64,000 bases of DNA from a virus: IMG/VR virus record IMGVR_UViG_3300015371_000004, positions 32,001-96,000 of that record; one strand, written 5' to 3'. Each line of letters begins with the position of its first letter. Within the stretch, counting starts at the first letter, position 1. The position numbers were made by a program, and so were the translations under genes. The notes under the pieces are model-generated. The model made no database searches. It had not been told where the DNA came from and saw only the letters and a program-made list of their open reading frames with translations. Shown here piece by piece: positions 6,100 through 43,327 of the stretch.

Positions 6100-6621
6100 T
6101 CAGCGGCCTCTTCGGAAGAGCTGATACGGGCCCGTCGGCGGCTTCAGAAATTGCACGGCAAAGACATGGATGGTGTTACCCGTCAGCGTCAGCGACTCGT
6201 TCGACCGATCGATAAAATTGATCAGCCCGTCGGCGTTTGCTCCGTTCTTGCCCGCCAGCGATCGACCCTCCGGGCCCCCCAACCGGTAGATCGTCTCCCT
6301 CCCGGCCGGGACCTTGATCCCCGCCTCGGCCACCATTCGTTCGAGGTGAGCGCTTTGCTCAGGCCCGCCGTCTGGCCTGAACGCATCAATGGCCGACAGG
6401 GGGATGGAGCCGACATGGTCGGCCGTGAACGCTCCGCCCTCCGGGAAGCTGTACCAGTTGGCCTGCCAGTTCCCGTGCTTCGTCCCGGTCTGGACCCCCA
6501 CGGCCGGACCGTTCTCACGCCCACAGAACTGGCCCCCGTCAGGGCGGCCCGCGGGCTGGTGGCAGTCGTTGGACTCCCGAAAACCTCCGGACGAGGGCTG
6601 AAGACGCCAGTCGAGGCTCAT
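6100..6621 (-). CDS. Motif-tagged protein 1 (putative virion cargo)
   Basis: N-terminus MSLDWRLQPSSGGFRESNDCHQPAGRPDGGQFCG is nearly identical to that of 7054..8223; the body is unrelated. Confidence 0.7.
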   Translation of the reverse strand: MSLDWRLQPSSGGFRESNDCHQPAGRPDGGQFCGRENGPAVGVQTGTKHGNWQANWYSFPEGGAFTADHVGSIPLSAIDAFRPDGGPEQSAHLERMVAEAGIKVPAGRETIYRLGGPEGRSLAGKNGANADGLINFIDRSNESLTLTGNTIHVFAVQFLKPPTGPYQLFRRGR

Positions 6622-7049
6622 TGGGCCGTCGTCAGGGCGCCGAACTTGATGTGCGTCTCGCGCCCGCAGAACTTGTTGGTCTGGTCGTAGAGGTCCTGCT
6701 GATTGATGACCTCAGTCACCGTCCGGCCGACCCCGGTAATCGTGTGGACCACCTTGTCGAAGAGCTGGGTGATCCGGATCTCGATGTCGTAGACCCGCTC
6801 GACGTCGTAGGAGTACGTCCGGATGGAGACGACCGGCTCGGTCACCCCGTTCACCTCCCGGCCCATCGACATCTGCGCCCACGAGAGGTACGCCGGGAAG
6901 CCGATCGGCGTCTCGGCCGGGGCGTCGTAGTAGTGGTAGACCCGCGGATCGGATGGGCCGCCGCCGGTCAGCGTCTTGATGGTCGTGTCCCCTGCCAGCG
7001 TGGTCTGCAGGTAATCGGTAATCTTGTCCGAGAGGACCGCGAGTGGCAT
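6618..7049 (-). CDS. Tail terminator/neck protein-like
   Basis: Start MPLAVLSDKITDYLQ at 7049; RVY...AP...FPAYLSW pattern typical of tail-completion proteins; synteny. Confidence 0.55.
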   Translation of the reverse strand: MPLAVLSDKITDYLQTTLAGDTTIKTLTGGGPSDPRVYHYYDAPAETPIGFPAYLSWAQMSMGREVNGVTEPVVSIRTYSYDVERVYDIEIRITQLFDKVVHTITGVGRTVTEVINQQDLYDQTNKFCGRETHIKFGALTTAQ

Positions 7050-7053
7050 AGGG

Positions 7054-8223
7054 TCAGAATTCCCCCTTCGACCGATACGCGGGCGCCTGATCGACCCAGA
7101 GCACCTGCTTCTTCGAGTAGTGCTTGACCCGCCCAAAGACCGTCTTGATCCCCGCATCGGCCAAGGCCCTCTGGTACTTGCCCAACGCGTAGAGCCTAGA
7201 GCCCCCCTGAAACGACCCGACATGGTCGATGTAGATCCGCTGCGGATTTCCGGGGGTACTGAAGTCAGTGCGCGTGTTCACCACGTAGCCGTGGGCACTC
7301 GACTCCTCGCTACCGGGCACAGTCAGCCCATGGCGCGCGTGGCGTCCGGCCGTATGCCCCGCCGCTTGGAGCGCCTGACTGACACGACTGAACGTGCTCT
7401 CACCACCCCCAAAGAGCTTCTCGGCACGCGTCCCCAGCTCGACCGCCATCTGCTGGTCAGTCAATCCGTGCTTCGGTCCCACCCAGAAGGTGTCACCCGA
7501 CACGTCTTGCCGGGTGTACACCGAGCGGCCGAGCTTCACTGTAGCCCCAAGCGGGGCATGGGCGGCCAGCCACGCCCCGGCTCGTCGATGCTGGGCCTCG
7601 GTGGCCGTCTGTGCGTACGCAAAGCTCTTGGCGATGCTCTGCACCGTGCTGCAGAACTGTCCACCGTCCGGTGACCCACCCGGCTTGTGGCAGTCATTCG
7701 ACTCCCGTTGCGCCTTCTTCCACCGCACGCCGACATAGTGCCTGCCCATCGCTGACTGGACGTACGGCTGGCCATCCCGGTCCACTTTGACCACTCCGCG
7801 TGTACCAGTCTCCGTGTCGAAGACGACGTCCCCCTTGGCGAGGCCATGCTTCTGCTTGAGCTGCGCGGCGAGCTTGGGCGCCACCGCAGCAGTCGCGGCA
7901 GCCTTGGCTACCCTCCGCTCGGCCTGCTGTCGCTTTCGCCCCGCCCCCAATACTTCCAGCTGAAAGGCGGCACTCGGGATTCCCGGGCCCTTGCGTTGAT
8001 TGGACCAAAACGCATCGACATCCTGCTCCAGCCGCCGCTGCCCATGCTTCTCAGCGTAGGCGGCCACCTCTGTCGCGTAGGCCGGGTGTCGCGCAAGAAA
8101 TTCTTGGGTGCCCACGTGAGCTGTGGAGCAAAACTGCCCACCGTCGGGTGATCCACCCGGCTTATGACAGTCGTTGGCCTCCCGGAAGCCGCCCGACGAG
8201 GGTTGGAGGCGCCAGTCGAGCAT
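7054..8223 (-). CDS. Motif-tagged protein 2 with two motif copies (putative virion cargo polyprotein)
   Basis: ATG 8223 with GGAGG SD; FREANDCHKPGGSPDGGQFCS at the N-terminus and QRESNDCHKPGGSPDGGQFCS internally (7710-7648); basic protein. Confidence 0.75.
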   Translation of the reverse strand: MLDWRLQPSSGGFREANDCHKPGGSPDGGQFCSTAHVGTQEFLARHPAYATEVAAYAEKHGQRRLEQDVDAFWSNQRKGPGIPSAAFQLEVLGAGRKRQQAERRVAKAAATAAVAPKLAAQLKQKHGLAKGDVVFDTETGTRGVVKVDRDGQPYVQSAMGRHYVGVRWKKAQRESNDCHKPGGSPDGGQFCSTVQSIAKSFAYAQTATEAQHRRAGAWLAAHAPLGATVKLGRSVYTRQDVSGDTFWVGPKHGLTDQQMAVELGTRAEKLFGGGESTFSRVSQALQAAGHTAGRHARHGLTVPGSEESSAHGYVVNTRTDFSTPGNPQRIYIDHVGSFQGGSRLYALGKYQRALADAGIKTVFGRVKHYSKKQVLWVDQAPAYRSKGEF

Positions 8224-8345
8224 CAGGCGCCTCCCCACGTTGCTGACTTTTTCCGGTTGTCCGTCATCCAGAGCGGCTTCTGGTGTGCCGCGGCTCGGGC
8301 CGGGTTTTTTCGGCGCCACTCCCGCTGGTACTCCGCAGTCGTCAC
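8223..8345 (-). pseudogene. 40-aa ORF, possible homing-endonuclease N-terminal remnant
   Basis: MTTAEYQREWRRKNPARAAAHQK...; coupled by GTGA upstream and TGATG downstream; no nuclease core. Confidence 0.35.
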
Positions 8346-8758
8346 GCTCCACCTAAAGACAGTCGGCCGGAGTATGAGGCATCTTCCAGCGCGCTATCTA
8401 TGCCTTCAGCTAGTTTTTCGTATAAATCTGGAAGGTATTTGTAAAAAGTGCCCCAGAAGTACGGGTACGGGCGGCTTCTGCCGGGCACGCCCTCCTCCAC
8501 TGCCGCGGCGTAGGGCGCCAAGGCGTAGACGTGCAGCTCGATGTGCCCATTGCCCGGGACTTCGATGTGGTAGCCGATGCTCCGCTCCAGCCTCCCCGTC
8601 CGGTTGATGAACGAGTGCTGGGTGATCATCTCCTGCGTGGCCGTCGACCCGAACCATTCGAGGACGGTCGTGATGTTGAGCAGGAACTGCTGCGCCAACC
8701 CACCCACCCGCGTGATGAGGTCGTCGAGCCCTTCCATCCGGAGGCGCGGGACGATCAC
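8342..8758 (-). CDS. HK97 gp10-like neck protein
   Basis: RTGRLERSI...APYAAAVEEG...PYPYFW motifs. Confidence 0.75.
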   Translation of the reverse strand: MIVPRLRMEGLDDLITRVGGLAQQFLLNITTVLEWFGSTATQEMITQHSFINRTGRLERSIGYHIEVPGNGHIELHVYALAPYAAAVEEGVPGRSRPYPYFWGTFYKYLPDLYEKLAEGIDSALEDASYSGRLSLGGA

Positions 8759-9153
8759 GGCACCACCGGCGCCGTCTGGCGATACTCGTCGAGCCGCAGC
8801 TCGACGAAGTAGCCGTGATGGTTCAGGACGTTCGTCACCTGAAACGTCTGCCCGTCGATGTCCACGAAGTCACCCTGCAGGACGCCCCGGTTGCCCACGA
8901 CAATGAGGGTGGGCGAGGTCCGCTCCGTCTGCCCGCCGCCGTAGAGCTGGACCACGCCCCCAGCCGGGATGAAGAGCAGCTCCCCCTCGTAGATCACGGT
9001 CCGAGGCCCCGAGCCGAACTGCTTCTGGCCCTTGTTCCCGTAGACGTACGTCTCCCGGTAGATCCGGAGGAAGCGCGCCGGGAAGGACCGGGTCAGCTGC
9101 TGGATTTCCCGCTGCACGATGGTGCCGCGGGGGCGCCGGAGTCCGGTCCTCAT
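8755..9153 (-). CDS. Head closure/stopper protein
   Basis: 132 aa ending GDFVDIDGQTFQVTNV...VELRL; synteny. Confidence 0.6.
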   Translation of the reverse strand: MRTGLRRPRGTIVQREIQQLTRSFPARFLRIYRETYVYGNKGQKQFGSGPRTVIYEGELLFIPAGGVVQLYGGGQTERTSPTLIVVGNRGVLQGDFVDIDGQTFQVTNVLNHHGYFVELRLDEYRQTAPVVP

Positions 9154-9791
9154 CGGCCTTGATAGTTGATCATCCGGTAGGCGGTCATGGCGAGGGCAGG
9201 CGATTCCTGCCCGAGGGCCGTTTCGAGAAAGACCTTGAGCTTCGTCTGCGCCTTCTCGAAAGCAAGCCGGGCCATCTCCCGCCAGTTCGGGTGCGAGCGG
9301 TACTGGTGCGCCTCGTAACCGCCCGCGGTGACCACGATCTCCTCGGCCTCGATCGCCGCCATCATCATGTAGGCATGGTAGGCCGCGAAGTCGAGGGCCA
9401 CCGGGCGCAGCCCCACTGGGCTCACGAGGGGGACCGTTTCGAAACTCAGCGTCTGGCAGCCTTGGATCACCGCCTCATCGAGCTGCTCATCGCTGAACCA
9501 TTGGTAGCCGAAGGACGCCAAGAGGGCGCCGGAGGGCGGCGGCGCGGTGACCAAGCTGACCACGCCCGTGTCCACTTCGAAGTTGTCGATGTCGCCGTCC
9601 TGAATGATGGCCCCGTCGAGGTAGAGCGTCAGAGAGCCTTCGAGGATGCGCGTGCGGCCAAGAGAAAAGTCTTTGGTATGCCCGTCCGGGACAGGATAGA
9701 TCGGGACCTTGAATTCGAACTTGTCCCCGTCGTTATCCGCGAGCAGTGTCCGGAGAGACTTGCGCGCGGCACTCGACTCCCACTCGGCCAT
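9150..9791 (-). CDS. Head-tail adaptor protein
   Basis: LRTLLADN...FSDEQLDEA pattern with an inserted beta domain; synteny after the capsid gene. Confidence 0.6.
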   Translation of the reverse strand: MAEWESSAARKSLRTLLADNDGDKFEFKVPIYPVPDGHTKDFSLGRTRILEGSLTLYLDGAIIQDGDIDNFEVDTGVVSLVTAPPPSGALLASFGYQWFSDEQLDEAVIQGCQTLSFETVPLVSPVGLRPVALDFAAYHAYMMMAAIEAEEIVVTAGGYEAHQYRSHPNWREMARLAFEKAQTKLKVFLETALGQESPALAMTAYRMINYQGR

Positions 9792-10341: not shown

Positions 10342-10419
10342 GGTTCCCTACCCCTTGAAACACGAACGCCCGCTGGGGTCACACGATACCACCAGCGGGC
10401 GCGTGCCGAATCAGGAGCC

Positions 10420-11469
10420 TTACGTGAGGACCGTGCCGTCGTTGCCGAGGTACGCGAACCGCGGCTCGACCCAGTCGGCCTCCCACCGTTCGCGCGCGCG
10501 GAAGGCGTAGACCTCCATGATGAAGGAATTGCCGCTGCGCGGATCCTCCTGCACGATCTCCAGATTGTCGCGCCGCTGGAACACGAAGCCGCGCTTGGGG
10601 TCGCCGATGAGCCACGCCTTGGCGGGGATGAACGGCGACACGAACACGGTGTAGCGCCCGTAGAGCGGGTTGATCTGGCCCGAGAACGTGCCGGTCGAGG
10701 TGATCGGCATGATGGTCGAGTTCATGAGCCGGAGCGCGGTGAACTCGTCCTCCGGGCTCACCAAGAGCTGTGTCGGGACGTGCAGGAACTTGCGGCCGGT
10801 CGGGTCGACGATCCGGCGCGCGTTGGTGTGCGCCGATTCGAGGGATGTCGCGCTGAGCACCGAGTAGGCCGCGGGCCGATTGCCGTAGAGCGTGCTGAAC
10901 ACGACGCCCGTGCCCGCGGTGCCCGTGTAGGTGGAGGGGCCGACTTTGACACCTTCCTCCGTTCGGGTCAGGCCAAGCAGGCGGGACAGCACGTAGATTT
11001 CTTGGAAGATCCGGAAGCCTTCGCCGAGGTCCGCCGAGCGGCTGCGAATCTGGCCGGTCTGATCGTCGTCGAACAGCTCGCGCTCGAAGGTGATGAGCTG
11101 GCCGTACTTGTAGTTCAGGATTTCGCGCTCGAAGCCCTTGAACGCGCTGTCCTGAAACTTTTCACCGTTGTCGACCTGCTTGGGCAGCGTCGGCCGGTAC
11201 AGCCCGCCGTAGATTTCGCTCCGGCGACTCGACCGCACCTCGGTGACGAAGTGCGGGAAGATGACCGGCAGGTCCCGGAAGACGACGTTGGCGAACTCCT
11301 GCACGGCCGATCGCAGCAACCATCCGTAGGTCGCTTCGATGTTGGCTTCGTAGAAATTGCCGAGCCGCCCCGCGGCTTCACGCAGCCGGTGGAAGCTGAA
11401 CGAAGGGTCGAGATAGTCGATCCGAGAGGCGACTTCTCGCAATTTGCCGAGCATGCGCTGAGAAAACAT
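10420..11469 (-). CDS. Major capsid protein (Mu gpT-like, HK97 fold)
   Basis: NYKYGQLITFERELFDDDQTGQI, PTQLLVSP, INPLYG, AWLIGDPKRGFVFQRR; follows protease and decoration genes. Confidence 0.88.
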   Translation of the reverse strand: MFSQRMLGKLREVASRIDYLDPSFSFHRLREAAGRLGNFYEANIEATYGWLLRSAVQEFANVVFRDLPVIFPHFVTEVRSSRRSEIYGGLYRPTLPKQVDNGEKFQDSAFKGFEREILNYKYGQLITFERELFDDDQTGQIRSRSADLGEGFRIFQEIYVLSRLLGLTRTEEGVKVGPSTYTGTAGTGVVFSTLYGNRPAAYSVLSATSLESAHTNARRIVDPTGRKFLHVPTQLLVSPEDEFTALRLMNSTIMPITSTGTFSGQINPLYGRYTVFVSPFIPAKAWLIGDPKRGFVFQRRDNLEIVQEDPRSGNSFIMEVYAFRARERWEADWVEPRFAYLGNDGTVLT

Positions 11470-11527
11470 CGTTCGTGGCTCCTTGAGCGGTCAAAACCCC
11501 TTCGTCTACGCGGCGCGAAGCGCCGTC

Positions 11528-12013: not shown

Positions 12014-12063
12014 GGTATGTCGTCTCCGTCAGATTCTTCGCGTGCCCCTCATGAACGGACGAA

Positions 12064-13659
12064 CTACTTGGTGGTCTGCGCCTGCTTGATCGGCAGCCCC
12101 AGCTCTTCGAGAAAGTCATCCGGGCCCGCTTCCCCGTTGGCAAACGACTCCCGGAAGCGCGACGGCATCCCGTCGACTTCGCCGTCCGAGTCCTCATCGA
12201 ACTCCTCGTCGCGCGACCGCGCGCTCTCGACGAGCGAGCTGTAGAAGCTGGCCGCCTCTTCCATCTCGGCCTTGGTCCGGCACTCGCGCACGAGCTTGGC
12301 GGCGAGCTTGTCCTGCGTGTCCTTGTCGAGCCCCTTGACCTTCTTGACCACGCGGGCCGCGGCGGCCTCACGCGCCTGCTGGTTCATCTTGGCCTTGAGC
12401 TGACGGTTCTCTTCCGTGATGGCTTCGAGGGCTTCCTTCAGCCGTTCGGTCTCGGTCGGCTCGGCCGCGCCCTCGGTCTCGGCGTAGCGCCGGGCCTTCT
12501 GGGTCGTCTGGGTCGACTTCTTCGTCATCGACCCGGCCCCCGCCTTGGCGCCGCCCTTGGCCGCCATGTTTTTCTTGGCCCCTGTGGTGTAGATCGCGTT
12601 CTCACGCGTCTTGTCGGCTTTCTCCTCACCCGGGCGAATCACCTTGGTGCCGCGGTTGAACCGGTCCCGGAGCGACGACACGGCCTCCCGAGTCTCCTCG
12701 GGGTCTTCGGCCTCCTCGTCGTCTTCCTCGTCGGCCTCATCCTCTTCCTCGGCGTCGGCCTCTTCCAGTTCGTCCTCGGCGTCGGCGTCCTCGGCGTCGT
12801 CTTCCTCGGGCTCCGCCGCTTCGCGGGTCTCTTCAGCCTCGTCGTCGGCCGCGGCTTTCTTGGTCGGCTTCTTGGCTTCCTTGACCTTGTCCTTCTTGGT
12901 GGCCTTGGCGTCGGCCTCCTCGCTCATGCACTCTCGGAGCTGCTCGGTAAGCGTCTCGACCTTGGCCGCATCACCGCGCTTGGCGGCCTCCGCGATCTTG
13001 GTCAACAGCTTCTCTTTCTTCCCCATGATGGTCTGCTCCTGTCGAGCTGCTCGGGCCGATTCGAGGAGGTGTTGAAACCCCCCACCTGCGCCAGCCTCGG
13101 TCACGATGTCGGCCGAGGCAATCTTTCGAAAGTTCTGAACCTCGTTGACCTTGCCGCCCGCTTCCGCGATGTCGGCCTCTTGGGTGTCGCCGTGGCCATT
13201 GATCGAGATACCGATCCGGTCCGCCGCGCCCCACTCCTTGAGGTCTTCGATGTTCTGGGCCAGCCACCGCTGCGACCTGAAGACATTCAGGTCGCCGACG
13301 ACTGCGCCCCCTCGCTCTCCCTCACGCACAAACCGAACGTTGGTGTACAGCCCAACCTGATCCCGGATGGTGCGCTCGGGCTGGACGGTCTCATCGATGC
13401 GGGAGGGATGGTCAGCGTACGCCCGGAGCTTCTCGAACTGCCCTTGGTCGACGGCCTCTTTGAGGACATGCGCCGGGTAGTAGTGCCGGTCGGCGGCGTT
13501 TCCCAGACCAGCCTTGATGATGGTGACACCCCGGAAGACACGGCCCCCATCCGCGAGGGGCAGGCTCCGCGCGCGCTCGCTGAACGTCCGGACGAACGTC
13601 GTCAGGTGCGCTTGCTGGCGCCGGGTAATCGGGTACTTTCGTGCGGCGGCCGTGGCCAC
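12064..13659 (-). CDS. Prohead protease fused to acidic/coiled-coil scaffold
   Basis: AYADHP, IGISING and SADIVTEAGAGG protease motifs, then a highly charged low-complexity scaffold region. Confidence 0.85.
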   Translation of the reverse strand: MATAAARKYPITRRQQAHLTTFVRTFSERARSLPLADGGRVFRGVTIIKAGLGNAADRHYYPAHVLKEAVDQGQFEKLRAYADHPSRIDETVQPERTIRDQVGLYTNVRFVREGERGGAVVGDLNVFRSQRWLAQNIEDLKEWGAADRIGISINGHGDTQEADIAEAGGKVNEVQNFRKIASADIVTEAGAGGGFQHLLESARAARQEQTIMGKKEKLLTKIAEAAKRGDAAKVETLTEQLRECMSEEADAKATKKDKVKEAKKPTKKAAADDEAEETREAAEPEEDDAEDADAEDELEEADAEEEDEADEEDDEEAEDPEETREAVSSLRDRFNRGTKVIRPGEEKADKTRENAIYTTGAKKNMAAKGGAKAGAGSMTKKSTQTTQKARRYAETEGAAEPTETERLKEALEAITEENRQLKAKMNQQAREAAAARVVKKVKGLDKDTQDKLAAKLVRECRTKAEMEEAASFYSSLVESARSRDEEFDEDSDGEVDGMPSRFRESFANGEAGPDDFLEELGLPIKQAQTTK

Positions 13660-13683: not shown

Positions 13684-13908
13684 TCAGCGGCGAGTCAGCG
13701 GCGCGGCGACGACCTCATCCCCATCGAAGTTGGCGATGTAGGGGCGGTGGATCCGTAGCTCTTCGAAGGGGACGCCCCGGCGTCGGCACCACTCGACGCA
13801 GTGATCGGTGAAGGCCAAAAAGAAGGCCGAGAGGTCATGGTTCTTTTCGAGGAGCCTGACCATCTGGCTATTGTTCGTCTCCAGCATCTCGTGGATGTTC
13901 GACGGCAT
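13684..13908 (-). CDS. Hypothetical protein
   Basis: 74-aa ORF in the head operon. Confidence 0.5.
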   Translation of the reverse strand: MPSNIHEMLETNNSQMVRLLEKNHDLSAFFLAFTDHCVEWCRRRGVPFEELRIHRPYIANFDGDEVVAAPLTRR

Positions 13909-13910: not shown

Positions 13911-14198
13911 CTATTTGCCCTTAAAGGATTTATCTCCAAGGCTCGACGTACAGACGGCGTACGCATTCACCCCGCGCCCGCTGGCCTTGACCTTGTCGGT
14001 ACACCGCTTCCATTTGTCCGTGTGGATGTCCTTGTGGCCCGCCTTGGTCATAACCTCGCGCGTGAGAGGCCAGTTCGACGGGGTCGTGGCCACCCGAGCC
14101 TGAATCACGCGCACGGGGATCCCCCGCAGGTGGACCGTCTCGCCCGGGGCAAGGTCACGCTCTTCCAGCGAGTCTGACTGAGGAATCGGCCGAATCAT
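13911..14198 (-). CDS. Small basic two-Cys protein (possible head-internal protein)
   Basis: AAGGAG SD before ATG 14198; LTRE|VMTKAGHKDIHTDKWKRCTDKVKASGRGVNAYAVCTSSL. Confidence 0.55.
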   Translation of the reverse strand: MIRPIPQSDSLEERDLAPGETVHLRGIPVRVIQARVATTPSNWPLTREVMTKAGHKDIHTDKWKRCTDKVKASGRGVNAYAVCTSSLGDKSFKGK

Positions 14199-15315
14199 GC
14201 GGGGTCTCCTTCCCACAGAGTGCCTTGAACGTCTCCACCCACGCCGGGCCTTTGGCCTCCTCGGAGTAGCTCGCCCACACTTCCCGGTTGGCGGCCTCCC
14301 CCACCCGTCTCCGTAGGTCTATATCCTCAACAAGCGCTGAGAGATGCTCCTCCCACTCGGCCTGCGTCTCGGCCAAAAATCCCGTGCGGCCATGGTCAAT
14401 GCTCTTGGCATACGGATAGACCTTCGAGGCCACACAGGGCACGCGAAGTGACGCGTACTCCAGCCACTTGAGGTTCGATTTCGCCGCGTTAAACTGGCAC
14501 GGCGTGAGCGGGGCGATCCCGATGTCGAAGCTCACGAACTTCAGGGTCGCCGGGTACTTCTCGAACTTCACGCCCTTGACCACCTGTCGGCGGTTGGGCG
14601 GCACCGTCTGGCGCACCAGCTCCGGGAGGATCCCGAAAAACCGCAGCATCACCTGCGGGTAGCGCTTGACGATCTCGGCCAGCGCTCCGGCCGCCGCCGA
14701 GAAGTCCGTCTCATGCGTCGTCGACCCCTGCCAGCCGATGACCGTGTGCGGGTAATTGCTGTACGGCGTCACCGGGCAGAGCGCGGCGTCGCCCCAGTAG
14801 TCGGTCCGTAGGTGGTTGGGGCAGATAGAGATCCGGTCCTGCCAGCGCTTCCAGCCCAGATGCGTAGCCACCGCCTGCGCCAACGGTACCGTGGAGGTGG
14901 TCACCCGATCAGCCAGATCAAGCTGGGCCTCCAAGTCGCGCCGGATGTCCCGCCGCTCCCAGAAGCCCTTGGCCGGGTTGGTCCGCGGAATCGCCCACAG
15001 GTCATCGTCGAGATCCACCGTCGTCGGGATCCCCCGGCGCTGGCACTCCCGCATGACGGCTGGAAACGGCCCGCCAATACTGCGCTGGAAGACCATGAGA
15101 TCGTACTCGTAGCCCTCAGGCGAAAGCCCACCGATTCGGTCGGTCGGGTGCCCCTCTCCGGCCGCCGTCAGCGCGCGCATGTAGTGCGCGACCACCTCGC
15201 GCTGGTTGACCATGTCGATGTCGGCCGCCTTCGACTGCTGCACGTACATCGCCGGGAAGTACGAGCGGTACATCCCGACTCCCATGGTGTCGCTGTAGAA
15301 CCACTGCACTTTCAT
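14155..15315 (-). CDS. GT-B (GT4-like) glycosyltransferase
   Basis: VDLDDDLW, IGWQGSTTH, DIGIAPL...FNAAKSNLKWLEYASLRVPCVAS, HGRTGFLA. Confidence 0.9.
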   Translation of the reverse strand: MKVQWFYSDTMGVGMYRSYFPAMYVQQSKAADIDMVNQREVVAHYMRALTAAGEGHPTDRIGGLSPEGYEYDLMVFQRSIGGPFPAVMRECQRRGIPTTVDLDDDLWAIPRTNPAKGFWERRDIRRDLEAQLDLADRVTTSTVPLAQAVATHLGWKRWQDRISICPNHLRTDYWGDAALCPVTPYSNYPHTVIGWQGSTTHETDFSAAAGALAEIVKRYPQVMLRFFGILPELVRQTVPPNRRQVVKGVKFEKYPATLKFVSFDIGIAPLTPCQFNAAKSNLKWLEYASLRVPCVASKVYPYAKSIDHGRTGFLAETQAEWEEHLSALVEDIDLRRRVGEAANREVWASYSEEAKGPAWVETFKALCGKETPHDSADSSVRLAGRA

Positions 15316-16187
15316 CCGGTACGCCTCGCCTGAAAGACCGAATACGGCACGTACGTGCGCGCCCGCCCCTGCACCATCGACTGCGGAAGTTTCTCACACC
15401 GGCAGTTCGGATGACTATCGCGAATCGGCTGGTCCGTGGTGACGGTCAGGTGTTTCGGCCAGCAGATCGGGCAGACCTTCTCGTCATCCATGGTCACCCA
15501 GACCTCAGCCTCGTCGAACCGGTTGTAGGCCGCCGCCGCGCCGAGCGCGAGCGCCCAGAACAGCTCATTCGAGCCCAGCCCCGCAAGGCCTGCCTTGACC
15601 GTTGCCGCGATCCCGCCCAGCCGTGACAGCGTCTCTGGAAAAGGCTGCTCGGTGGCCACCGCGTAGCGGAGCGCCCCATTGACCTTCTGCGTGGCCACCC
15701 CGGCCCATGCCCCCACCCGATCCCGATAGTCGAGCCCGTTGATCTGAGCGGCCAAGAGGGCTTCCAGCGCGTCTTCCTCGTCGATCGGCTCCTCATCGAG
15801 GGCCCCATCCACGCCCCCGAGGAAGAGCGCCCACAGCCCCTGCTCGTAGCCTGCCGCATAGGCTCCCGCTAATGTGTCGTCGAACTCCTCCAGCGCGTCA
15901 TCGGCGGCATCCATGATCTCGTCTTGGAACTGCTGGGTGAGCGCGTCCACCGTGCCAAGGCTGGCGGCCTGCACGGTGTTCCATGCCGGGGTCTCTTCGG
16001 GCGACAAGTCCGGGAAAGGCAGGATGAAAAACTGGGCGAAGTAGCGGTCCAGTTCCTTCTGGAACATCTCGAAGGGCCGCTCGAACTCGTCGTCGAGCTT
16101 CGCCTTGAAACTGAACTCGCGCGCCTGAAATTCCCGGCGGCGCTGGAGCAGGATCGTCCGCGCGCTACTCGGTAGGTCTTGGGCCAC
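15312..16187 (-). CDS. MuF/SPP1 gp7-like minor head (morphogenesis) protein
   Basis: WVTMDDEKVCPICW...HPNCRC; directly after the portal; start position estimated. Confidence 0.8.
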   Translation of the reverse strand: MAQDLPSSARTILLQRRREFQAREFSFKAKLDDEFERPFEMFQKELDRYFAQFFILPFPDLSPEETPAWNTVQAASLGTVDALTQQFQDEIMDAADDALEEFDDTLAGAYAAGYEQGLWALFLGGVDGALDEEPIDEEDALEALLAAQINGLDYRDRVGAWAGVATQKVNGALRYAVATEQPFPETLSRLGGIAATVKAGLAGLGSNELFWALALGAAAAYNRFDEAEVWVTMDDEKVCPICWPKHLTVTTDQPIRDSHPNCRCEKLPQSMVQGRARTYVPYSVFQARRTG

Positions 16188-18231
16188 TGGATTCGAGAAG
16201 GGCCTGCACGCGCGCGATCTCCACGCCCAGCCGTGTGATGTCGCGACCATCGGCGGTCTGGGCCTGCTCGGTCATGAGGCGCGCCAGCTTCTTCCGGCGC
16301 CGTGTTTCGAGCGACCGCGCCCGTGCTTCGACACCCCAGACGGCTGCCGACGCCTTGAGCGGCGCCCCCGCCGACTTCTGGCCCGTGATGCTCGCGCGCT
16401 CGCCCCCACGGGTGAAGCCCCCACGGTTCAGGGTGGCGCGCGTGTTGGCCAGCCCGCGCCCGCTCACCGCCTTGGCGCTGTAGCCCATCTCGGCGCTCGT
16501 CTTGGTGACCTTCCGGGCATCGCTGTTCGTCGCGCCGCCGGGGCCCGCGATGGGCTCGGGCGCCTCCTTCGGCACCGACTGGAAGCCCTGCATCACGAGC
16601 GGATCCTTCCCGCGCTCCTGACGGATCGCCTCCTGCTCCTGCCCGTAGTCATACCCCGTGATCCCGACCTCACGTGAGGCCATGGTGGCCGACCGTTCCT
16701 TGGTGATCCAGTCCTGCGCCTCCATCATCGCCAGATCCTTGAGCTTGGCCGTCCGATCCTCGGCCGCCAGCCCCGGGAAGCTCACTTCGAAGATCGCCTT
16801 GGTCACCGGCAGCTTCTCAGTGTCCACCAGCCGCCGGTAGGTCTTGTGGAGCATCATCTCGATGACCTGCTGGTAGGTCTCGAAGTTCTTGACGTCCGGC
16901 TCGGTCTGGAGCAACGCGCTGGCGCGCGTCGAGGCCGAACTCACCCCCAAAAACTGCTCGGAAATTCCTGCGCCGATCGCGATGACCTTCAGGAGCATAT
17001 CGGCGTCGGTCTTGGCGTCCGACGCATCAGTCGACGCGTTCTTGTACTCGATCGCGATGGCGTCATTGTGGACGGCCACGGCCCCCGGACCCGGCGGCGT
17101 TGCAAACTGCTCGTTGGCCCGATCGACCTCGGACTTGCCCCCTTTGACCGAGACGTCGAGCGCGAACATCGACCGCATCTTGTTCTGCATGATGCGGTCG
17201 TCCATGAACTCCCGGAAGCGCAAGAGCCACCCGAGAATCGCGTACAGCTCCGACCGGCCGCGCTTCTCGCTCGACGACTTGTTCAGGGTGAAGTGGTCGA
17301 CCTCCTCGGCCGGGATATGGCGGATGACCAGAATCGAAGCGGGCACCTGCTCGCCGGGCACGATGATGGGCGACGACGCGACGTACTGCTGGTAGTAATA
17401 CTTCACGTCCTCCAAGTCTTCGAGGTTCGTGACGACGTCCCAGATGGTGCACGGGTCAATCTGCCGCTGGGTCAGCTTCCCCTTCACCACAAAATGCCGG
17501 TTGAACTGCTCTCCGTAGGTCATCAGCTCGCGAAGCCACGTCTTGATCCGGAGCGTCATGTCGTGGCGCAGCCAGAACTCGTCCCATGCCTTCTGATGAG
17601 CCGGGTCCGGCACGTCACAGGTCAGCCCCCGCGAGAGCACGAACTGCGGAACGATGTTGACGATCCGCTTGCCGAGCGGGTTGCGCGTCGCCGCGTCCCA
17701 GCATTTGACGTGCGCCGTCAGGTAATCGTGCAGCGTCTGCTGCTTGGCGTAGGGGCTGTTGAGCGCAGGCAGGACCGAGTCATGGATCGGGAACACCGAC
17801 CGCCGGTTGCCTGCGGCCTCATCCGGGTACAGCCCCGTGTAGAAGTCGTCCGAGGCGCCCGACTCCTTGAGCCGCGGATCGGTCTTGGCTTCCTCCCGCA
17901 GGCTCGCGTTCAGGTCCCGGAGCTTCTGCATCGAGTAGTGCTTGAGGATCCGGTCGCGCACCGGCTTACTCCGCGCGAACTCCCGGAAATTCTTGTAATG
18001 CACCAGCCGCCGGTTTTTGCCCGTGCCTTCGAGGACCTTGGCATTGATCCCCACGACCTTCGTCTGGACGTTCTGCAGCAGCCCTTCCATGACGGCATCA
18101 AAGGCCGGGAGGGCCGAGAGCCGGTTGACCCGGAGCTGCGGATCGGTCTTCTTGGGCTTGGCGTCGTCGTCGACCTCGCGCACGATGCCGAGGGCCGAGG
18201 CGTTCGGGTTCCGAATGGATGATTCAGGCAC
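16165..18231 (-). CDS. Portal protein
   Basis: TAAGGAG SD before GTG 18231; RNPLGKRIVN, RELMTYGEQF, EKRGRSEL; between terminase and MuF. Confidence 0.85.
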   Translation of the reverse strand: MPESSIRNPNASALGIVREVDDDAKPKKTDPQLRVNRLSALPAFDAVMEGLLQNVQTKVVGINAKVLEGTGKNRRLVHYKNFREFARSKPVRDRILKHYSMQKLRDLNASLREEAKTDPRLKESGASDDFYTGLYPDEAAGNRRSVFPIHDSVLPALNSPYAKQQTLHDYLTAHVKCWDAATRNPLGKRIVNIVPQFVLSRGLTCDVPDPAHQKAWDEFWLRHDMTLRIKTWLRELMTYGEQFNRHFVVKGKLTQRQIDPCTIWDVVTNLEDLEDVKYYYQQYVASSPIIVPGEQVPASILVIRHIPAEEVDHFTLNKSSSEKRGRSELYAILGWLLRFREFMDDRIMQNKMRSMFALDVSVKGGKSEVDRANEQFATPPGPGAVAVHNDAIAIEYKNASTDASDAKTDADMLLKVIAIGAGISEQFLGVSSASTRASALLQTEPDVKNFETYQQVIEMMLHKTYRRLVDTEKLPVTKAIFEVSFPGLAAEDRTAKLKDLAMMEAQDWITKERSATMASREVGITGYDYGQEQEAIRQERGKDPLVMQGFQSVPKEAPEPIAGPGGATNSDARKVTKTSAEMGYSAKAVSGRGLANTRATLNRGGFTRGGERASITGQKSAGAPLKASAAVWGVEARARSLETRRRKKLARLMTEQAQTADGRDITRLGVEIARVQALLESSGPRPTE

Positions 18232-18238
18232 AGGTCTC

Positions 18239-19117
18239 CTAGCGCAGACGCCGCTCGCCGTACGGGTCCTTGCGCATGAACGCGGGATTGGCGTGCACGT
18301 AGAGCATGCCCAGCTCTTCAGGGTTGTCGCGCTCCCACAGGAGGCCATTGGCCAGCGAGCCCGCCACCGCGTCGGCCACGTCCTTCCGGCCGGGCTGGCC
18401 ATTTCGGAAGCGCTTCGGATGGTCGTACTTGAGGCCCCGGACCACCTCCAGCTCGCGCATCTGCTCGAAGAAGGGCTCGAACTCGTAGTAGTCGAGCTTC
18501 TCCTCGTTCAGGAGTCCGATGAGGGTGTCGTAGGGCAGGCGGTTCCGGTCGACCGAGATCAGCTCGACCTCATAGCCGTCCTTCTCCAGCTGCTGGCGCG
18601 CTTCTTCGGACTGCCAACCGTCGTAGCTCACGCGGACGATGTTGAAGTCGCGAACCTTATGGAGGTTGTAGACGAAGCGCTGGCGGAGCCCCGCGTAATC
18701 GATCTGCTTGCCGGGCGCGGGCGTGATCTCGACCATGAAATCGACGACCCAGCGGGTGGTCCCGGGCTCCCGGTGAGTCATGGCCACCCCGGTCCGGTCG
18801 TTGTTTTTCGACTGGTCCACGTGGACGAAGTAGCGGCGGCCGGGCACGCCCCGGAAGATCGGGGTGAAGGTTTCCTCGTAGGGGTCCCACGGGCTCTGCC
18901 GGGCCTTGTTGGCGAACCGTTCGAGGATGCCCGGGTCGCGCAGCGCCTTCATGGCGCCCTGCGTCTTGAGCAGGACCGACCCATAGTTCTGCCACGCCAA
19001 GACCTCGTTCTGGCGGAACTGCTCCGCTAGACTCTCGAAGGTGACCTTGGGGTTCAGCTCCCAGCTGGCGGCGATGACCGCGATCCGAGTGCCGTCATGG
19101 GTTCGGTAGACTTCCAA
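18239..19117 (-). CDS. Terminase large subunit, C-terminal nuclease part
   Basis: SWELNP, VHVDQSKNNDRTG, SYDGWQS, KYDHP...KDVADAVAG (RNase H-like); TTG start without an obvious SD. Confidence 0.85.
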   Translation of the reverse strand: MEVYRTHDGTRIAVIAASWELNPKVTFESLAEQFRQNEVLAWQNYGSVLLKTQGAMKALRDPGILERFANKARQSPWDPYEETFTPIFRGVPGRRYFVHVDQSKNNDRTGVAMTHREPGTTRWVVDFMVEITPAPGKQIDYAGLRQRFVYNLHKVRDFNIVRVSYDGWQSEEARQQLEKDGYEVELISVDRNRLPYDTLIGLLNEEKLDYYEFEPFFEQMRELEVVRGLKYDHPKRFRNGQPGRKDVADAVAGSLANGLLWERDNPEELGMLYVHANPAFMRKDPYGERRLR

Positions 19118-37528: not shown

Positions 37529-37547
37529 AAGCGTCGCTCCTAACTGT

Positions 37548-37576: not shown

Positions 37577-37661
37577 CATGCTCCCCAGCGCCAAAAACGG
37601 ACGATACCACGCCTTACTACTCAGAAAAAGACCTAAATTACGGTTTCGTGTAAATAGGGCC

Positions 37662-38563: not shown

Positions 38564-38572
38564 CGGCTCCTC

Positions 38573-38986: not shown

Positions 38987-39005
38987 CTCAGCCGGGTAAT
39001 ACCCC

Positions 39006-39404: not shown

Positions 39405-39991
39405 AGGCTGCTCGCGTCGATGACAGAGTCTGGGGCAAAGATGATCGGATCCAAGCCGTCCCAAACCCCGCAGCGCTTGTGCCAGATCAGCCACCCGCAC
39501 GTCACCGAGTCCGTCGAGGGCTCGCCTCTGCTGTTCAGCCGATACCGGATCCGCGGCAGCACGAGGTTCTGCGTCGGCGGGAGATCCCGCAGCAGCGACC
39601 GCCTCAGCCCACCCTTGAGCGGTTCGAGAAAGGACAGGCGTACGTGCATGGCGATCCCGGAGGTCACGACCGGCCACGCGTGCTGGAGAATCGGCGCCGC
39701 GATCGAGAACGCCGGGTTGACCGCCACCCAGTCGACCATGCCCGGCAAAAACTGGCGCCAGTAGCGCGGGTCGGAGGCGTCCTCGTGGGCCATCGCGTCC
39801 CACTGCGGGTCGAGATCGTTCGTGATGAACGCGACCTCGGGATACCGCGCGCCAATGACCCTCGTCATCGCGCCAGCACCCACGCAGGGATCGACCACCG
39901 TCCCCTGAAACCGCACGTGGTCGCAGAGCCACTCGGTCACGAAGGGCGGGGTCTCGTAGAACTCGTAGTCTATTTGTGCCGGTGTGGCCAT
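39386..39991 (-). CDS. Amino (N6-adenine-type) DNA methyltransferase-like protein
   Basis: FYETPP, motif I DPCVGAG, motif IV variant VNPAF, RLSFLE. Confidence 0.78.
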   Translation of the reverse strand: MATPAQIDYEFYETPPFVTEWLCDHVRFQGTVVDPCVGAGAMTRVIGARYPEVAFITNDLDPQWDAMAHEDASDPRYWRQFLPGMVDWVAVNPAFSIAAPILQHAWPVVTSGIAMHVRLSFLEPLKGGLRRSLLRDLPPTQNLVLPRIRYRLNSRGEPSTDSVTCGWLIWHKRCGVWDGLDPIIFAPDSVIDASSLWRPTQ

Positions 39992-40218
39992 AGCGCGATC
40001 TCGCCGGATGGTCCGGTCTCCGCCGGTTCGGCGAGGATCTTCGCCGCCCGCTGCCGCAGGAGGTCCGCTTGGGCCCGGCGGCGCGCGGTGCTCTCCCGCA
40101 ACCGCTCGTCCGCCTTCTGCGTGCTCTGGCGCTCGCGGAGGCGCGCGCCCTTGTCCTTCAGGAGCTGATCAAGCCTTCGGTCTTCGTCCGTTTGTTGCGC
40201 CCGACGCCACCAGCCCAT
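39970..40218 (-). CDS. Hypothetical protein
   Basis: GGGAGG SD; GGGGTAATAC upstream. Confidence 0.5.
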   Translation of the reverse strand: MGWWRRAQQTDEDRRLDQLLKDKGARLRERQSTQKADERLRESTARRRAQADLLRQRAAKILAEPAETGPSGEIALWPHRHK

Positions 40219-40597
40219 CTCGTCCTCCCTCTGGTATTACCCCGTCGCGCCGGTCACGTGGGAGCAGGAACGGATAGCGGTCGCGTCGATTCTGGTCAGG
40301 CGTCCCCCAGTAGCCATGGAAGGGATTGACGCATTCCTCATTGTCGCATTCGGGCAGGTGGCAGGCCTCGAAGCCGTTGTGGTCGTAGAGCGCGGTGTTG
40401 TCCCTGATGCAGAGGGCGACCCGGAAGGCCGGGACGATCAGCTGTTTCTTGGTGCCCGGGTCTCGGCAGATCCAGATCACCGGGCGCCTGTAGCCGCCGA
40501 GCTTGATCGACATGGCGCCGGTCCAGTCCCAGCAGCTGAACCAGTCGGTGATGACCACCTTGTCCCAGAACCTGCGGCGGAGCGGCTCGTCGATCAC
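40169..40597 (-). CDS. HNH endonuclease
   Basis: RFWDKV...CWDWTGA...ACHLPECDNEECVNPFHGYWGTPDQNRRD. Confidence 0.82.
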   Translation of the reverse strand: MIDEPLRRRFWDKVVITDWFSCWDWTGAMSIKLGGYRRPVIWICRDPGTKKQLIVPAFRVALCIRDNTALYDHNGFEACHLPECDNEECVNPFHGYWGTPDQNRRDRYPFLLPRDRRDGVIPEGGRDGLVASGATNGRRPKA

Positions 40598-40600
40598 CTA

Positions 40601-40876
40601 CTACTCCATCCGAACAAGCCCATCGACAGGGAGATCGAGCGTGAACTCCACGCCCCCAAGGCAGTCATGGAGAAGCGCGGGCAGCTCGCGGCGCAGCTCC
40701 TCAGACATATCCCGGAAGTTGACGCAGTGCAGCAAGCTCAGCACGCTGTACGCGCGGACGTCGGGGACATTGCCGATCACCTTGATGATTTTGTCGATGA
40801 CGCAGATGTTAAAGCTGCCATCGCCAACCATTTTGCGGAGCGCGGCGATGACCGCCGCCCGTTCAATGGCGTCCAC
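40601..40876 (-). CDS. Hypothetical protein (probably leaderless)
   Basis: GTG 40876 lies 6 nt after GGGGTATAAC. Confidence 0.55.
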   Translation of the reverse strand: MDAIERAAVIAALRKMVGDGSFNICVIDKIIKVIGNVPDVRAYSVLSLLHCVNFRDMSEELRRELPALLHDCLGGVEFTLDLPVDGLVRME

Positions 40877-41259
40877 GCGGAGGTTATACCCCAGCCCTAA
40901 GGCCACGTGTAGGGAGTCTTCCAGACCTCCCTGATCATCGTCGCGACCCCACCTTCGACCGTGCCCGTCCGCCAGCCTTGCTCGACCAGCGACGCCCACT
41001 CAATCGAGTGGTAAATTGTCTTTCGATACTCGTAGCGTCGAAACATCAGGCTTCCTCCCATCCGCCAAGGACCACCCACTTGCCGGTCGCCAGCTCTCGG
41101 CCGTAGTGGAGACCTCGGTGATTCTTGTACTGGAAGATTCGGAACCGTCGGCCGTCCTTCTGAGCAACACCGTAGACGTAGCGCCCGGACTGGCCGTCGG
41201 TACTGCGGTGAAGCGCGTCCCTGATTCCGTAAAAGTTCGTCACCAACGCAACCCTCCCT

Positions 41260-41976
41260 TCACTCAACGGGATCCCCGGCCACGACCTCGACGTTCGATC
41301 CGGCCGTGAAGACCCTCGTGCCGTTCGCCAGCTCCAACCCCACCCTCTCGTAGTTCTCGTCGTCAGCGAAGCCATAAGACCGGGCCAGCGCCGAGTAGGC
41401 GGAACGCTTGAACTTGTCTTTGCCAGCCCAGAAGACCCGGCCGACCGTGCCCTTCGGGACCTTCCGGCCCTTGACCACCTTGACCGTCCGGCCGACCTTG
41501 GGGAGCTTGGCCTCGGCCGCCGCGCGCGCTGCGCGGGCCCTAGCTCGCTTGCGCTCCGACCATGCCTCGTAGGCCGCGAGGACCTCGGGGGTCGCATCCA
41601 CGCTGGCGCCGTTCGGGTAGGACCAGCCGCGGGTTGAGGCGTAGGTGACGCGCTCGGTCTTGCCCTCCTCTGGATTCCAGACCACCGCGTAGAAGTCGCT
41701 GTCGTCGTAGCCGTTGTACTCGCCCGTCGAGAGCACCAGCCCCTCGTGGGTGGTCTTCATGTAGAGCGGGCCATGCACGAAGCACCGACCGCCGTCCCGG
41801 AGGTAGTCGGTCAAGCAGCCCTCGGAGAGGGCTCCAGATTTGTCGTAGCCTTTGGCCCGGTTGGGGCACTTGCTGTCGTGAGAGACCGCGCCCGTCTCGT
41901 GGCCGGGGTAATCATTGACCGTCTCGACGTTCGGCAGGCCAGCCTCGTCGGGTCCGGTCATCATACGGATCGCCAT
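41260..41976 (-). CDS. Early accessory protein with KOW/SH3-like C-terminus
   Basis: GYDDSDFYAVVW...VKVVKGRKVPKGTVGRVFW; GGAGG SD and ECF-like promoter. Confidence 0.7.
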   Translation of the reverse strand: MAIRMMTGPDEAGLPNVETVNDYPGHETGAVSHDSKCPNRAKGYDKSGALSEGCLTDYLRDGGRCFVHGPLYMKTTHEGLVLSTGEYNGYDDSDFYAVVWNPEEGKTERVTYASTRGWSYPNGASVDATPEVLAAYEAWSERKRARARAARAAAEAKLPKVGRTVKVVKGRKVPKGTVGRVFWAGKDKFKRSAYSALARSYGFADDENYERVGLELANGTRVFTAGSNVEVVAGDPVE

Positions 41977-41995
41977 CTTTCCTCCTTCCACTTAT

Positions 41996-42039
41996 TTAGA
42001 CGTACGGAAGGCAGGAAAAGTTCAATTACAGGACTGTAA
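41996..42039 (-). promoter_or_regulatory. ECF-like promoter + TTACA-N4-TGTAA palindrome
   Basis: TGAAC-N17-CGTCTAA; palindrome at 42026-42039. Confidence 0.72.
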
Positions 42040-42041
42040 TC

Positions 42042-42227
42042 CTAGATGGGGTGGTTGGGGGTATCGGGGAGTCGACCCAGCCGCCTGAGCCGGGCCAGCT
42101 CATCTTCCAGTTCGGCGTAGTAGGCGGCCTCCTCGGCCGTCCTGACAAGCCTCTGCCGACGGGCTTGGTCCAGCGTCATGCCCCGCTGGATCGCGGCCCA
42201 CATCGACTCCATGCGGTCGGTGTCCAT
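42042..42227 (-). CDS. 61-aa protein after Zeta-like kinase 2 (candidate inhibitor)
   Basis: ATG 5 nt after GGGGTAGTAC; helical. Confidence 0.6.
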   Translation of the reverse strand: MDTDRMESMWAAIQRGMTLDQARRQRLVRTAEEAAYYAELEDELARLRRLGRLPDTPNHPI

Positions 42228-42235
42228 ACGTGGTA

Positions 42236-43327
42236 CTACCCCGTCTCCAGCGTCTTCTTCCGGGCCTTGAGCCGGAAGCTCTTCCAGAGCCGCTTGTTGT
42301 GGATGACGAGCGCCGGGCCGCGCGCCGAGGCCACCAGCCGCGGCTCCCCCAGCTTGTTCGTGTCCCAGAGCCGGAACTCCGTGAAGAGCCCCCGGCGGAC
42401 CACCCGCGGGACCACCTGCGAGACACCCCGATGAGCCTCCCGGATGTAGGGGTGCGGCGTGTAGCGCCCCTGCCGTGGGCCCGGCTTGAGCGCCCCCTGA
42501 TCGGACAACCGGAGCGCCAGTTCCACCGAATTCGTCGCGTAGTCGGCGATCACCCGGTAGCCCTTCTTCCGGAACCCTTCGAGCTTGTCCGTCAGCTTGT
42601 CGATGCTGCTGTCGCCCACGCCATCGAGCACGATGTCCTGCCCGTTGCTGAGCGCCTTCATGATCACCTTGAACGTGATGTCGCTGCTCTCCTCATGGCT
42701 GAGCGTCGAGGCCCGGTGGTCCCCGCCCAAGACCATCGCCTGATACTCCGGGATCCGCGCTTTGACCGCGTCCGGGTTGGCGTAGACCGCGAGGCCCGTC
42801 GGCGGGAACTTCACCAGCCCGGTATTGACCATGGTCGACTTGCCACTGGCCGGGCCGCCGCCCGTCATGTAGACCGTCTGGTTGGTGCTCTTCGGGATGC
42901 CGCGTGTCAGCTCGTCCACAATCCGGTCGTGGAGCTTCAGTCGCTCAGCCGTATAGACTCCGTCCTTCGAGTATATCTGCTTGGTGTCCGGCGGCAGCGC
43001 CTCGAAGTCCTCGCAGATCCCGGTGCCCTTCGGCGCGAACCGGCCGCCGATGCCCGAGCCTGCGGGCTCATGGCAGCGGTTGAATTCCTGAAGACGCCGG
43101 GTCCAGTCCCGCCTCCGGCTGAGCAGGAAGTCAGCCCAGCTGACGTTTCCCGTCCGGCGTTTCCACTGCTGGAAATGGCTCTGCAGGACCTTGAGGACGC
43201 CAACCGCCGTGCCGCTGTCCGCCGGTCTTCCCCGATGGGAAGCGAAGCGGCCAAGCCGGTCGTGGTAGTGGTTGTACTCCCGGGTCCGCGGCAGCTCGGG
43301 CTCGGAATTCGAGGCGGGAACAATCAC
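42236..43327 (-). CDS. Zeta-toxin-like P-loop kinase 2 with two N-terminal motif copies
   Basis: GGPASGKST, NPDAVK, SHEES, IVLDGV; TREYNHYHDRLGRF and LQEFNRCHEPAGSGIGGRFAPKGTGICE. Confidence 0.85.
   Translation of the reverse strand: MIVPASNSEPELPRTREYNHYHDRLGRFASHRGRPADSGTAVGVLKVLQSHFQQWKRRTGNVSWADFLLSRRRDWTRRLQEFNRCHEPAGSGIGGRFAPKGTGICEDFEALPPDTKQIYSKDGVYTAERLKLHDRIVDELTRGIPKSTNQTVYMTGGGPASGKSTMVNTGLVKFPPTGLAVYANPDAVKARIPEYQAMVLGGDHRASTLSHEESSDITFKVIMKALSNGQDIVLDGVGDSSIDKLTDKLEGFRKKGYRVIADYATNSVELALRLSDQGALKPGPRQGRYTPHPYIREAHRGVSQVVPRVVRRGLFTEFRLWDTNKLGEPRLVASARGPALVIHNKRLWKSFRLKARKKTLETG

Follow-up and report, generated by a model that had tools for sequence, protein, structure and literature searches.

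A 64,000-nucleotide stretch of viral DNA, bases 32001-96000 of the IMG/VR record IMGVR_UViG_3300015371_000004 (hereafter the window), encodes six proteins that share a 20-residue peptide tag. The locus raises a key question: is this tag an address that brings proteins into the phage head, a signal at which they are processed there, or both? At a probability of roughly 0.5, we read the motif h-x-[E/K]-x-N-x-[C/Y/N]-H-x-P...G-G-[Q/R]-F-[C/A/T] (h, hydrophobic; x, any residue) as a putative portable boundary element that would combine a prohead-protease cut with docking. The source record is a 115,949-bp virus contig (G000, ~76% complete, 65% G+C). Coordinates are window positions unless marked genome, and an arrow in a sequence marks a presumed cut.

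A tag shared by otherwise unrelated proteins

The preliminary description of this DNA had claimed eight copies of the motif. All eight were found where it had placed them, on the minus strand and in six open reading frames (ORFs). The tagged proteins and their tag cores, together with the copies located elsewhere on the contig, are as follows.

6100..6621, minus strand: 173-aa tagged protein; leader MSLDWRLQPSSGGFRE; tag core 6523-6576 (ESNDCHQPAGRPDGGQFC)
7054..8352, minus strand, probable start ATG 8223: two-module protein, neither body assigned; N-terminal tag 8128-8181, internal tag 7651-7704
20996..22111, minus strand: Zeta-toxin-like kinase 1; N-terminal short tag 22049-22090, MHLVPLSE↓FNPCHDPRDGKFA
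22116..23225, minus strand, probable start 23180: two-module protein P0002 (354 aa by the IMG/VR gene call); internal tag 22689-22742
23197..23724, minus strand: 175-aa basic protein; N-terminal tag 23614-23664
42236..43327, minus strand: Zeta-toxin-like kinase 2; short Cys-less tag 43241-43279 (EYNHYHDRLGRFA) and long-form tag 43034-43087
genome 19211-19297 and 19928-20017: two further tag copies beyond the window, from the profile search
G000:C1:18317-19321, outside the window: tagged 334-aa protein with the HEVGH signature also seen in metallopeptidase modules of polyvalent proteins

A profile built from 33 copies detected exactly 10 tags in the whole contig, each with an E-value between 1e-9 and 1e-17. 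The two beyond the window belong to the 334-aa protein, which carries the HEVGH zincin signature and has no match in Pfam, and to a 248-aa Gly/Ser/Pro-rich protein. Glu at position -2 (two residues before the Asn), Asn, His, Gly and Phe are invariant in nine aligned copies, and the tenth has the same residues, while Pro follows Asn in 4 of the 10 copies and another residue in the other 6. The leaders of the window's tagged proteins are 8-25 aa long and end in h-x-E; the internal copies have no leader.

Could these copies be a chance resemblance or the product of recent duplication? Three of them encode the same 20 residues, yet 9-10 codons differ, with 0-1 non-synonymous codons, and the leader LDWRLQPSSGGFRE, which is common to copies, differs at 7 of 42 nt with every change silent. 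The codon comparison (9-10 of 20 codons; 7 of 42 nt in the leader) thus agrees with the earlier statement that the DNA copies differ largely at synonymous positions, and because identical peptides differ almost only at silent positions, the tag is conserved at the protein level. The bodies behind the motif had been described as unrelated except for two kinases; when we masked the tags, the two Zeta-toxin kinases were indeed the sole similar pair (E 4e-11). Taken together, the placement of the copies, their profile E-values, the silent divergence and the unrelated bodies indicate that the tag is due neither to chance nor to recent duplication.

The two kinases are also the only tagged proteins of the window with a named Pfam domain. 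Both are members of the Zeta_toxin family (PF06414), with scores of 77.6 bits (E 1.2e-21, kinase 20996..22111) and 75.3 bits (E 5.8e-21, kinase 42236..43327) against a gathering cut-off of 22.3; they are 29% identical to each other, GKT and GKS can be read in their sequences, and the second additionally matches phrog_16619, 'minor head protein' (E 3.5e-36). The body of the 6100..6621 protein has no match in Pfam, PHROG, NCBIfam or PADLOC; NCBIfam, PADLOC and the ESM Atlas returned no match for the tag or for the unassigned bodies, no Pfam or NCBIfam model matches the motif, and a word-index protein search returned only proteins of the window itself.

Distribution and forms of the tag

To describe the family, the motif profile was compared with 1.84 billion representative proteins. 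It matched 844 protein clusters at E<=1e-3, 124 of them at E<=1e-10, and three other IMG/VR phages carry 11, 15 and 13 copies. Many matches are giant proteins with 3-11 copies spaced 200-400 aa apart, and many others are small, with one copy at residues 2-34; in 150 representative proteins, 104 of 337 copies begin no more than 40 residues from the N-terminus. The 10 representative proteins that we looked up were all metagenome proteins without a name.

The motif exists in three intergrading forms, NPYHDxxGRF[TA]S, NP[YN]HEPAGSPEGG[QR]F[AT]S and the N[DP]CHxPAGSPxGGQFC of the window, and a Gly/Ser-rich flexible linker usually follows. The Cys at N+2 and the Cys after the Phe covary: among the 337 copies, 167 have both, 159 neither and 11 are mixed, and in the mixed cases seen in this contig the partner Cys lies ~7 residues further downstream (in kinase 20996..22111, for instance, it is shifted to KGVGDCE). 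Such covariation suggests that the two positions touch and that the motif is a putative closed loop, which a metal or a disulfide might close. An obligatory zinc knuckle was rejected, as both cysteines are absent from half of the copies.

The positions ahead of the Asn are less uniform than the preliminary description had assumed. The Glu that it called invariant is so in this contig and its clade; family-wide, position -2 is occupied by Lys in 144, Glu in 135 and Asp in 17 of the 337 copies. With Lys just as common, the family cannot be defined by Glu; its position -4 is hydrophobic and its position -1 is F, A, S, Y or G. The class of residue at -2 agrees within one protein in 94% of pairs, against 42% expected.

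Asn and His are invariant in 48 copies aligned from five phages, and the short form reads N-P-Y-H. Asn-driven backbone cleavage is known from the NPTH loop of FlhB/YscU and from Asn42-Pro43 of reovirus mu1, so that the tag might cleave itself at N-(P/D)-x-H, a role that its position at module boundaries would suit. However, divergent variants such as DQPRxPAGSPEGGRFAS have neither residue, many copies, the 6 of 10 noted above among them, have D, H, K, Q or R in place of the Pro, Pfam matched no FlhB-type family in tagged proteins, and the tag alone is not predicted to fold by AlphaFold2 (AF2). We consider self-cleavage, together with its variant in which an effector-borne peptidase makes the cut (see below), unlikely. 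The sequence E-x-N-P also resembles the D-x-E-x-N-P-G-P of 2A-like ribosome-skipping sites; this candidate was discarded, the G-P being missing and 2A working on eukaryotic ribosomes.

Another important question is where the tag sits in sequenced genomes. Among 185,579 species-representative genomes, the Cys long form was not found, and the short form was located in 96 genomic stretches from bacteria and archaea, mostly as K-F-N, in hosts ranging from Alphaproteobacteria and Clostridia to Methanobrevibacter and Nitrososphaera. Portal proteins account for 32 of the 93 genome ORFs with NPYHDxxGRF; 10-30 aa separate the portal domain from the tag, and behind the tag the chain runs on for another 100-290 aa without annotation. 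In four more of the 93, the tag follows an XkdF protease domain. The tagged prophage portals (KF-NPYHDxxGRFT), which are of HK97 type and Mu type and come mostly from Alphaproteobacteria, include the following.

L048:2835-5093: tagged portal protein
L040:345-1991: tagged portal protein
L034:1666-3825: tagged portal protein
L095:474-2237: tagged portal protein
28 other loci: tagged portal proteins

A tag behind a portal domain cannot be needed for the entry of its chain into the head, which favours a processing role. These settings also contradict the earlier supposition that the tag is specific to the protease and capsid type of this phage: it also accompanies XkdF-type proteases and portals of the HK97 and Mu types, and archaeal genomes have it too.

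tblastn with 35-aa tag segments against cultured phages gave nothing useful. ORF33 of TP901-1, which matches the last module of the giant protein P0003, showed no tag on reading, nor did the scanned part of Roseobacter phage CRP-6 (26000-44927, head to end); within these comparisons no tag-bearing cultured phage was found. Full-text literature searches with motif strings and for polyvalent-protein processing returned no description of the motif.

N-terminal copies have a second short conserved element ahead of h-x-E. It reads [LIV]-[VI]-P-x-S-[NE] in this contig (window proteins at 6100-6621, 8223, 22111, 23724 and 43327; also in genes of locus L001), and its counterparts are VPNS[WY]GS in G003 and FLVPLHE in G002, a complete 130-kb phage with a capsid protein 62% identical to the one encoded here. 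Internal copies are without this element.

The tag and polyvalent proteins

Which proteins carry the tag? Pfam domains found among 82 tag-bearing proteins are ART-PolyVal (14), ADPrib_exo_Tox (12), Zeta_toxin (8), GNAT (8), Phage_Mu_F (4) and Peptidase_S78_2 (2), as well as Topoisom_I, PI3_PI4_kinase, ATLF, NUDIX, LPD1 and ParBc_2. In P0003, which combines ART-PolyVal, Topoisom_I and ADPrib_exo_Tox, every Pfam domain lies between two tag copies. This repertoire is that of the phage polyvalent proteins as presented in the relevant sections of Iyer, Burroughs, Anand, de Souza and Aravind 2017 (PMC5512222): ART-PolyVal, MuF, Zeta kinase, GNAT, zincin, ParB and LPD1 are shared, as are the neighbourhoods of head genes and the predicted fate of being packaged and then injected. 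Term searches of that paper and its peptidase section gave no inter-domain boundary motif. Unlike the giant fusions, the proteins of the window consist of one or two modules, and each protein has its own tag.

The same sections of PMC5512222 propose autoprocessing of polyvalent proteins by metallopeptidases, and this bears on the peptidase variant of the self-cleavage alternative. The tagged HEVGH protein of the contig would be a candidate enzyme. A JAB/RadC-like signature, H-x-H-P-x7-S-x-x-D, was also read by eye in the tagged proteins L014:1858-2667, L018:12684-14930 and L018:8723-11518 of G002 and of G001, a phage with 51% G+C. On the other hand, zincin and JAB modules are absent from some of the phage regions with tags that were examined, and neither this route nor self-cleavage explains the lineage-specific Glu or Lys at position -2.

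The tagged bodies include host-directed enzymes (ADP-ribosyltransferases (ARTs), Zeta kinases, GNATs, topoisomerase), each module with a tag of its own. It is thus conceivable that the tag acts after injection, either as a handle that brings effectors to the entering phage DNA or a conserved structure of the host, or by priming modules for threading through the tail. We regard this as highly improbable: the tag is found next to head-assembly domains as well (portal, MuF, XkdF protease), and a host range that extends from Alphaproteobacteria and Clostridia to Methanobrevibacter and Nitrososphaera makes a shared host partner less likely than a shared phage partner. A secretion signal was rejected too, given the lack of a hydrophobic segment and the position of the genes in head modules.

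Candidate prohead-protease sites

If the tag is cut in the prohead, do the head proteins of this phage carry comparable sites? The relevant features of the window are listed below.

12064..13659, minus strand: prohead protease fused to an acidic coiled-coil scaffold (phrog_15531, E 8.7e-15)
13057-13068: candidate self-cleavage site LLE↓S of the protease-scaffold protein
12145-12162: candidate self-cleavage site SRFRE↓S of the protease-scaffold protein
10420..11469, minus strand: major capsid protein, Mu gpT-like (Pfam PF25209, PF10124)
11431-11445: capsid N-terminal candidate maturation site KLRE↓V
11374-11388: capsid N-terminal candidate maturation site RLRE↓A
11341-11355: capsid N-terminal candidate maturation site NFYE↓AN

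The protease has no match in Pfam, and sequence searches of the Protein Data Bank (PDB) with it and with the terminase-like pieces gave none. The AF2 model of its domain (predicted local distance difference test, pLDDT, 85.5) has T4 gp21 (5JBL) as the best Foldseek match (E 7e-5, TM 0.48-0.57), followed weakly by herpesvirus proteases; on this model, the enzyme is an assemblin-fold prohead serine protease of the T4 gp21 kind. In 24 protease-scaffold proteins, the His (ADHP) and Ser (GISIN) are invariant and L-[LV]-E-S, directly behind the protease domain, is nearly so, while h-R-E↓S is kept in close relatives ~25 residues before the C-terminal G-L-P-x-K end of the scaffold. From this pattern, LLE↓S and SRFRE↓S look like self-processing sites of the fusion.

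All three capsid sites are common to this phage and G002. The third lies in a column, [LMI]-x-E-[AST]-N/Q/S/H/I/T at residues 39-43, that is kept in 33 of 33 IMG/VR relatives, down to 31% identity, and directly precedes the conserved FGQLLR arm; to judge by this conservation, it is likely a maturation site whether tags are present or not. It also echoes the tag leaders of its own phage, with DLHE↓TN against PLHE↓xN in G002 and NFYE↓AN against FRE↓AN and FSE↓AN here. The N-terminus M-P-x-F-[LT]-[VIT]-P-[LI]-[HY]-E, with Asn at residue 12, is shared by G002 and 24 representative proteins. Every tag of the G001 clade reads [VI]-L-K↓x-N, and scaffold sites of this Lys-type clade are [IV]-[ILV]-K and [IV]-F-K. 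The HK97 protease probably cuts after Lys.

Thus, the h-x-E ahead of the tag, which had been taken as a cleavage site, matches conserved sites at three places in this clade: the capsid N-terminus, the protease/scaffold junction and the C-terminal tail of the scaffold. Together with the gp21-like fold, these sites make h-x-E↓[AS], with Glu at P1, a credible specificity of the protease, and the tags carry such a site.

Proposed mechanism

How might one peptide serve in all of these settings? Most often the tag stands between domains of a giant polyvalent protein or comes immediately behind a portal domain, and this points as strongly to a processing or boundary signal as to a delivery address, if not more so. 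Of the earlier view of a modular delivery tag, the portable, protein-level tag on unrelated bodies is supported.

In the reading that we prefer, the tag occupies three kinds of position: before each effector module of a giant polyvalent protein, between a portal or protease domain and its appendage, and at the N-terminus of single-module proteins. The prohead protease would recognise the loop and cut two residues before the invariant Asn, in this clade after Glu (h-x-E↓[AS]-N), and inside the prohead this cut would part the modules or detach them from the portal. The conserved loop, closed in this clade by the putative Cys pair, would stay on the new N-terminus and dock to the protease or another procapsid component. 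By the same docking, stand-alone tagged proteins (the two Zeta kinases and the metallopeptidase-like HEVGH protein, for example) would be drawn into the prohead and ejected later. We put forward more tentatively, as a possibility, that the prohead protease and the P1 residue of the tag (Glu, Lys or Asp) evolve together, and that a single 'dock here, cut here' peptide would load effector modules into the proheads of bacterial and archaeal tailed phages and release them, be they encoded singly, joined in polyvalent proteins or attached to the portal.

Several observations weigh against a protease cut at the tag. Some N-terminal copies have 3-9 residues before the Asn (MREF↓N in P0086), an oddly short propeptide, and the h-x-[E/K]-x stretch could be a mere structural strand of the motif. 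The sequence h-x-E-x-N is not rare, with 25 sites in the proteome against 13.4 expected; 8 of these are the tags, which make up the excess. Agreement at position -2 within proteins is also explicable by repeat paralogy, the likeness of the tag leader and the capsid site at P3/P2 rests on two phages, and the parallel in the Lys-type clade is looser (capsid L-[IV]-x-K-A-D, tags [VI]-L-K). For most relatives of this clade's capsid protein, no tag lies within 10 kb, and the tag is thus an accessory of assembly. In AF2, the tag alone (48-sequence alignment) reached a pLDDT of 59 without secondary structure; a lone tag predicted to be unstructured fits a bind-and-fold motif but decides nothing.

The last result is also what one would expect if the tag were never cut. 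It could be a docking peptide, either a linear motif or a bind-and-fold hairpin, that fixes each module to a procapsid component (the inner face of the capsid, scaffold, portal crown or MuF), with residues -4 to -1 forming part of the bound strand instead of a protease site, much as in encapsulin or contractile-injection signals. With its 20 residues, four of them invariant, and its two covarying Cys, the core goes far beyond what recognition by a protease would require, a flexible Gly/Ser-rich linker usually follows, and N-terminal copies begin almost at the Met. Nevertheless, uncleaved docking seems to us doubtful: a portal or protease domain is in the head anyway, so that a tag behind it would be redundant, a giant protein could make do with one tag but has up to 11, and the way in which the upstream residues copy the h-x-E sites of the clade's capsid and scaffold would be left unexplained.

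Comparison with known systems

The addressing and trimming of head cargo by short peptides is already known from T4, and polyvalent proteins are likewise known. T4 gp21 cuts after Glu in I/L-x-E (PMC12991175), and the internal proteins of T4 carry a capsid targeting sequence and are cleaved by gp21 (Mullaney and Black 1996, as summarised in PMC12991175). As in T4, the tagged proteins have a short N-terminal leader that ends in hydrophobic-x-Glu (MPxFLVPLHE↓ in G002; 8-25 aa here) and that precedes unrelated head proteins, the protease shares the gp21 fold, and capsid and scaffold carry the same kind of site. Unlike in T4, where the conserved part is the leader of ~10 residues that is removed, the strongest conservation here lies behind the presumed cut (N, H, G and F invariant), in a 20-residue loop that would stay on the cargo. 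The tag is moreover also internal, with up to 11 copies per protein, has Lys for Glu in other lineages and occurs in bacterial and archaeal viruses.

In phiKZ and SPN3US, head and inner-body proteins are cut after Glu by the prohead protease (PMC10052503, PMC7411985). The similarity lies in the processing of many head-internal or ejection proteins at x-x-E by one gp21-like protease; the phages discussed here differ in their size of 115-130 kb and their Mu gpT-like capsid protein. We know of no shared 20-residue loop beside the phiKZ/SPN3US cleavage sites.

Short peptides also direct diverse cargo into an HK97-fold shell or a phage-derived particle in encapsulins (cargo-loading peptides) and in contractile injection systems (N-terminal packaging signals). 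Such signals are single and terminal and have no link to a protease site, whereas the tags are N-terminal or internal and often multiple. To our knowledge, one 20-residue loop at module boundaries that occurs across hundreds of phage lineages, is kept after the presumed cut and has a lineage-specific P1 residue has not been described.

The motif bears on how polyvalent proteins and injected effectors enter heads and are cut into working parts. It provides a concrete site for mutation and a simple sequence flag for virion-delivered effectors in metagenomes, with 844 clusters already at hand, and, if the proposed mechanism is true, a natural tag with which any protein could be made virion cargo at the cost of ~25 added residues.

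Head-module setting and other features

The head module of the window comprises terminase-like pieces, portal, MuF-like protein, glycosyltransferase, protease-scaffold, capsid protein and a Neck1-type connector; those not yet listed are given here.

16165..18402, minus strand: portal protein (phrog_10963, E 4.6e-24); no tag found with the motif profile
15312..16250, minus strand: MuF-like minor head protein directly after the portal, CPICWP ... HPNCRC, without tag; Phage_Mu_F match weak (E 0.025, below cut-off)
8342-8758: Neck1-type connector
23727-24605: ORF with Walker A/B-like motifs (GSGSGKG, VMDEAAF) and no family match
18239-19117: ORF with weak terminase-large matches in its C-terminal part only

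Two of the tagged genes follow connectors, three lie just upstream of terminase-like genes and the kinase gene 42236-43327 stands apart. G002 has the same two clusters of tagged genes, upstream of the terminase/portal genes and between neck and tail genes, and additionally a tagged gene directly after the portal. In G001, the order is portal, four tagged genes, MuF-like gene, XkdF-like protease, scaffold and capsid, and of 80 loci with a relative of its capsid protein, 17 have tags. Tagged genes therefore lie among virion head genes in the phage of the window and in two other phage lineages.

ORFs 23727-24605 and 18239-19117 may together be a terminase split by ~4.6 kb in which three tagged genes and an islet of plus-strand genes lie. 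A glycosyltransferase gene (14155-15315; phrog_7162, E 4e-38) stands between the MuF-like gene and the protease, inside the head module, and a 74-aa gene just upstream of the protease (13684-13908) encodes two h-x-E-x-N sites, MLE↓TN and LLE↓KN.

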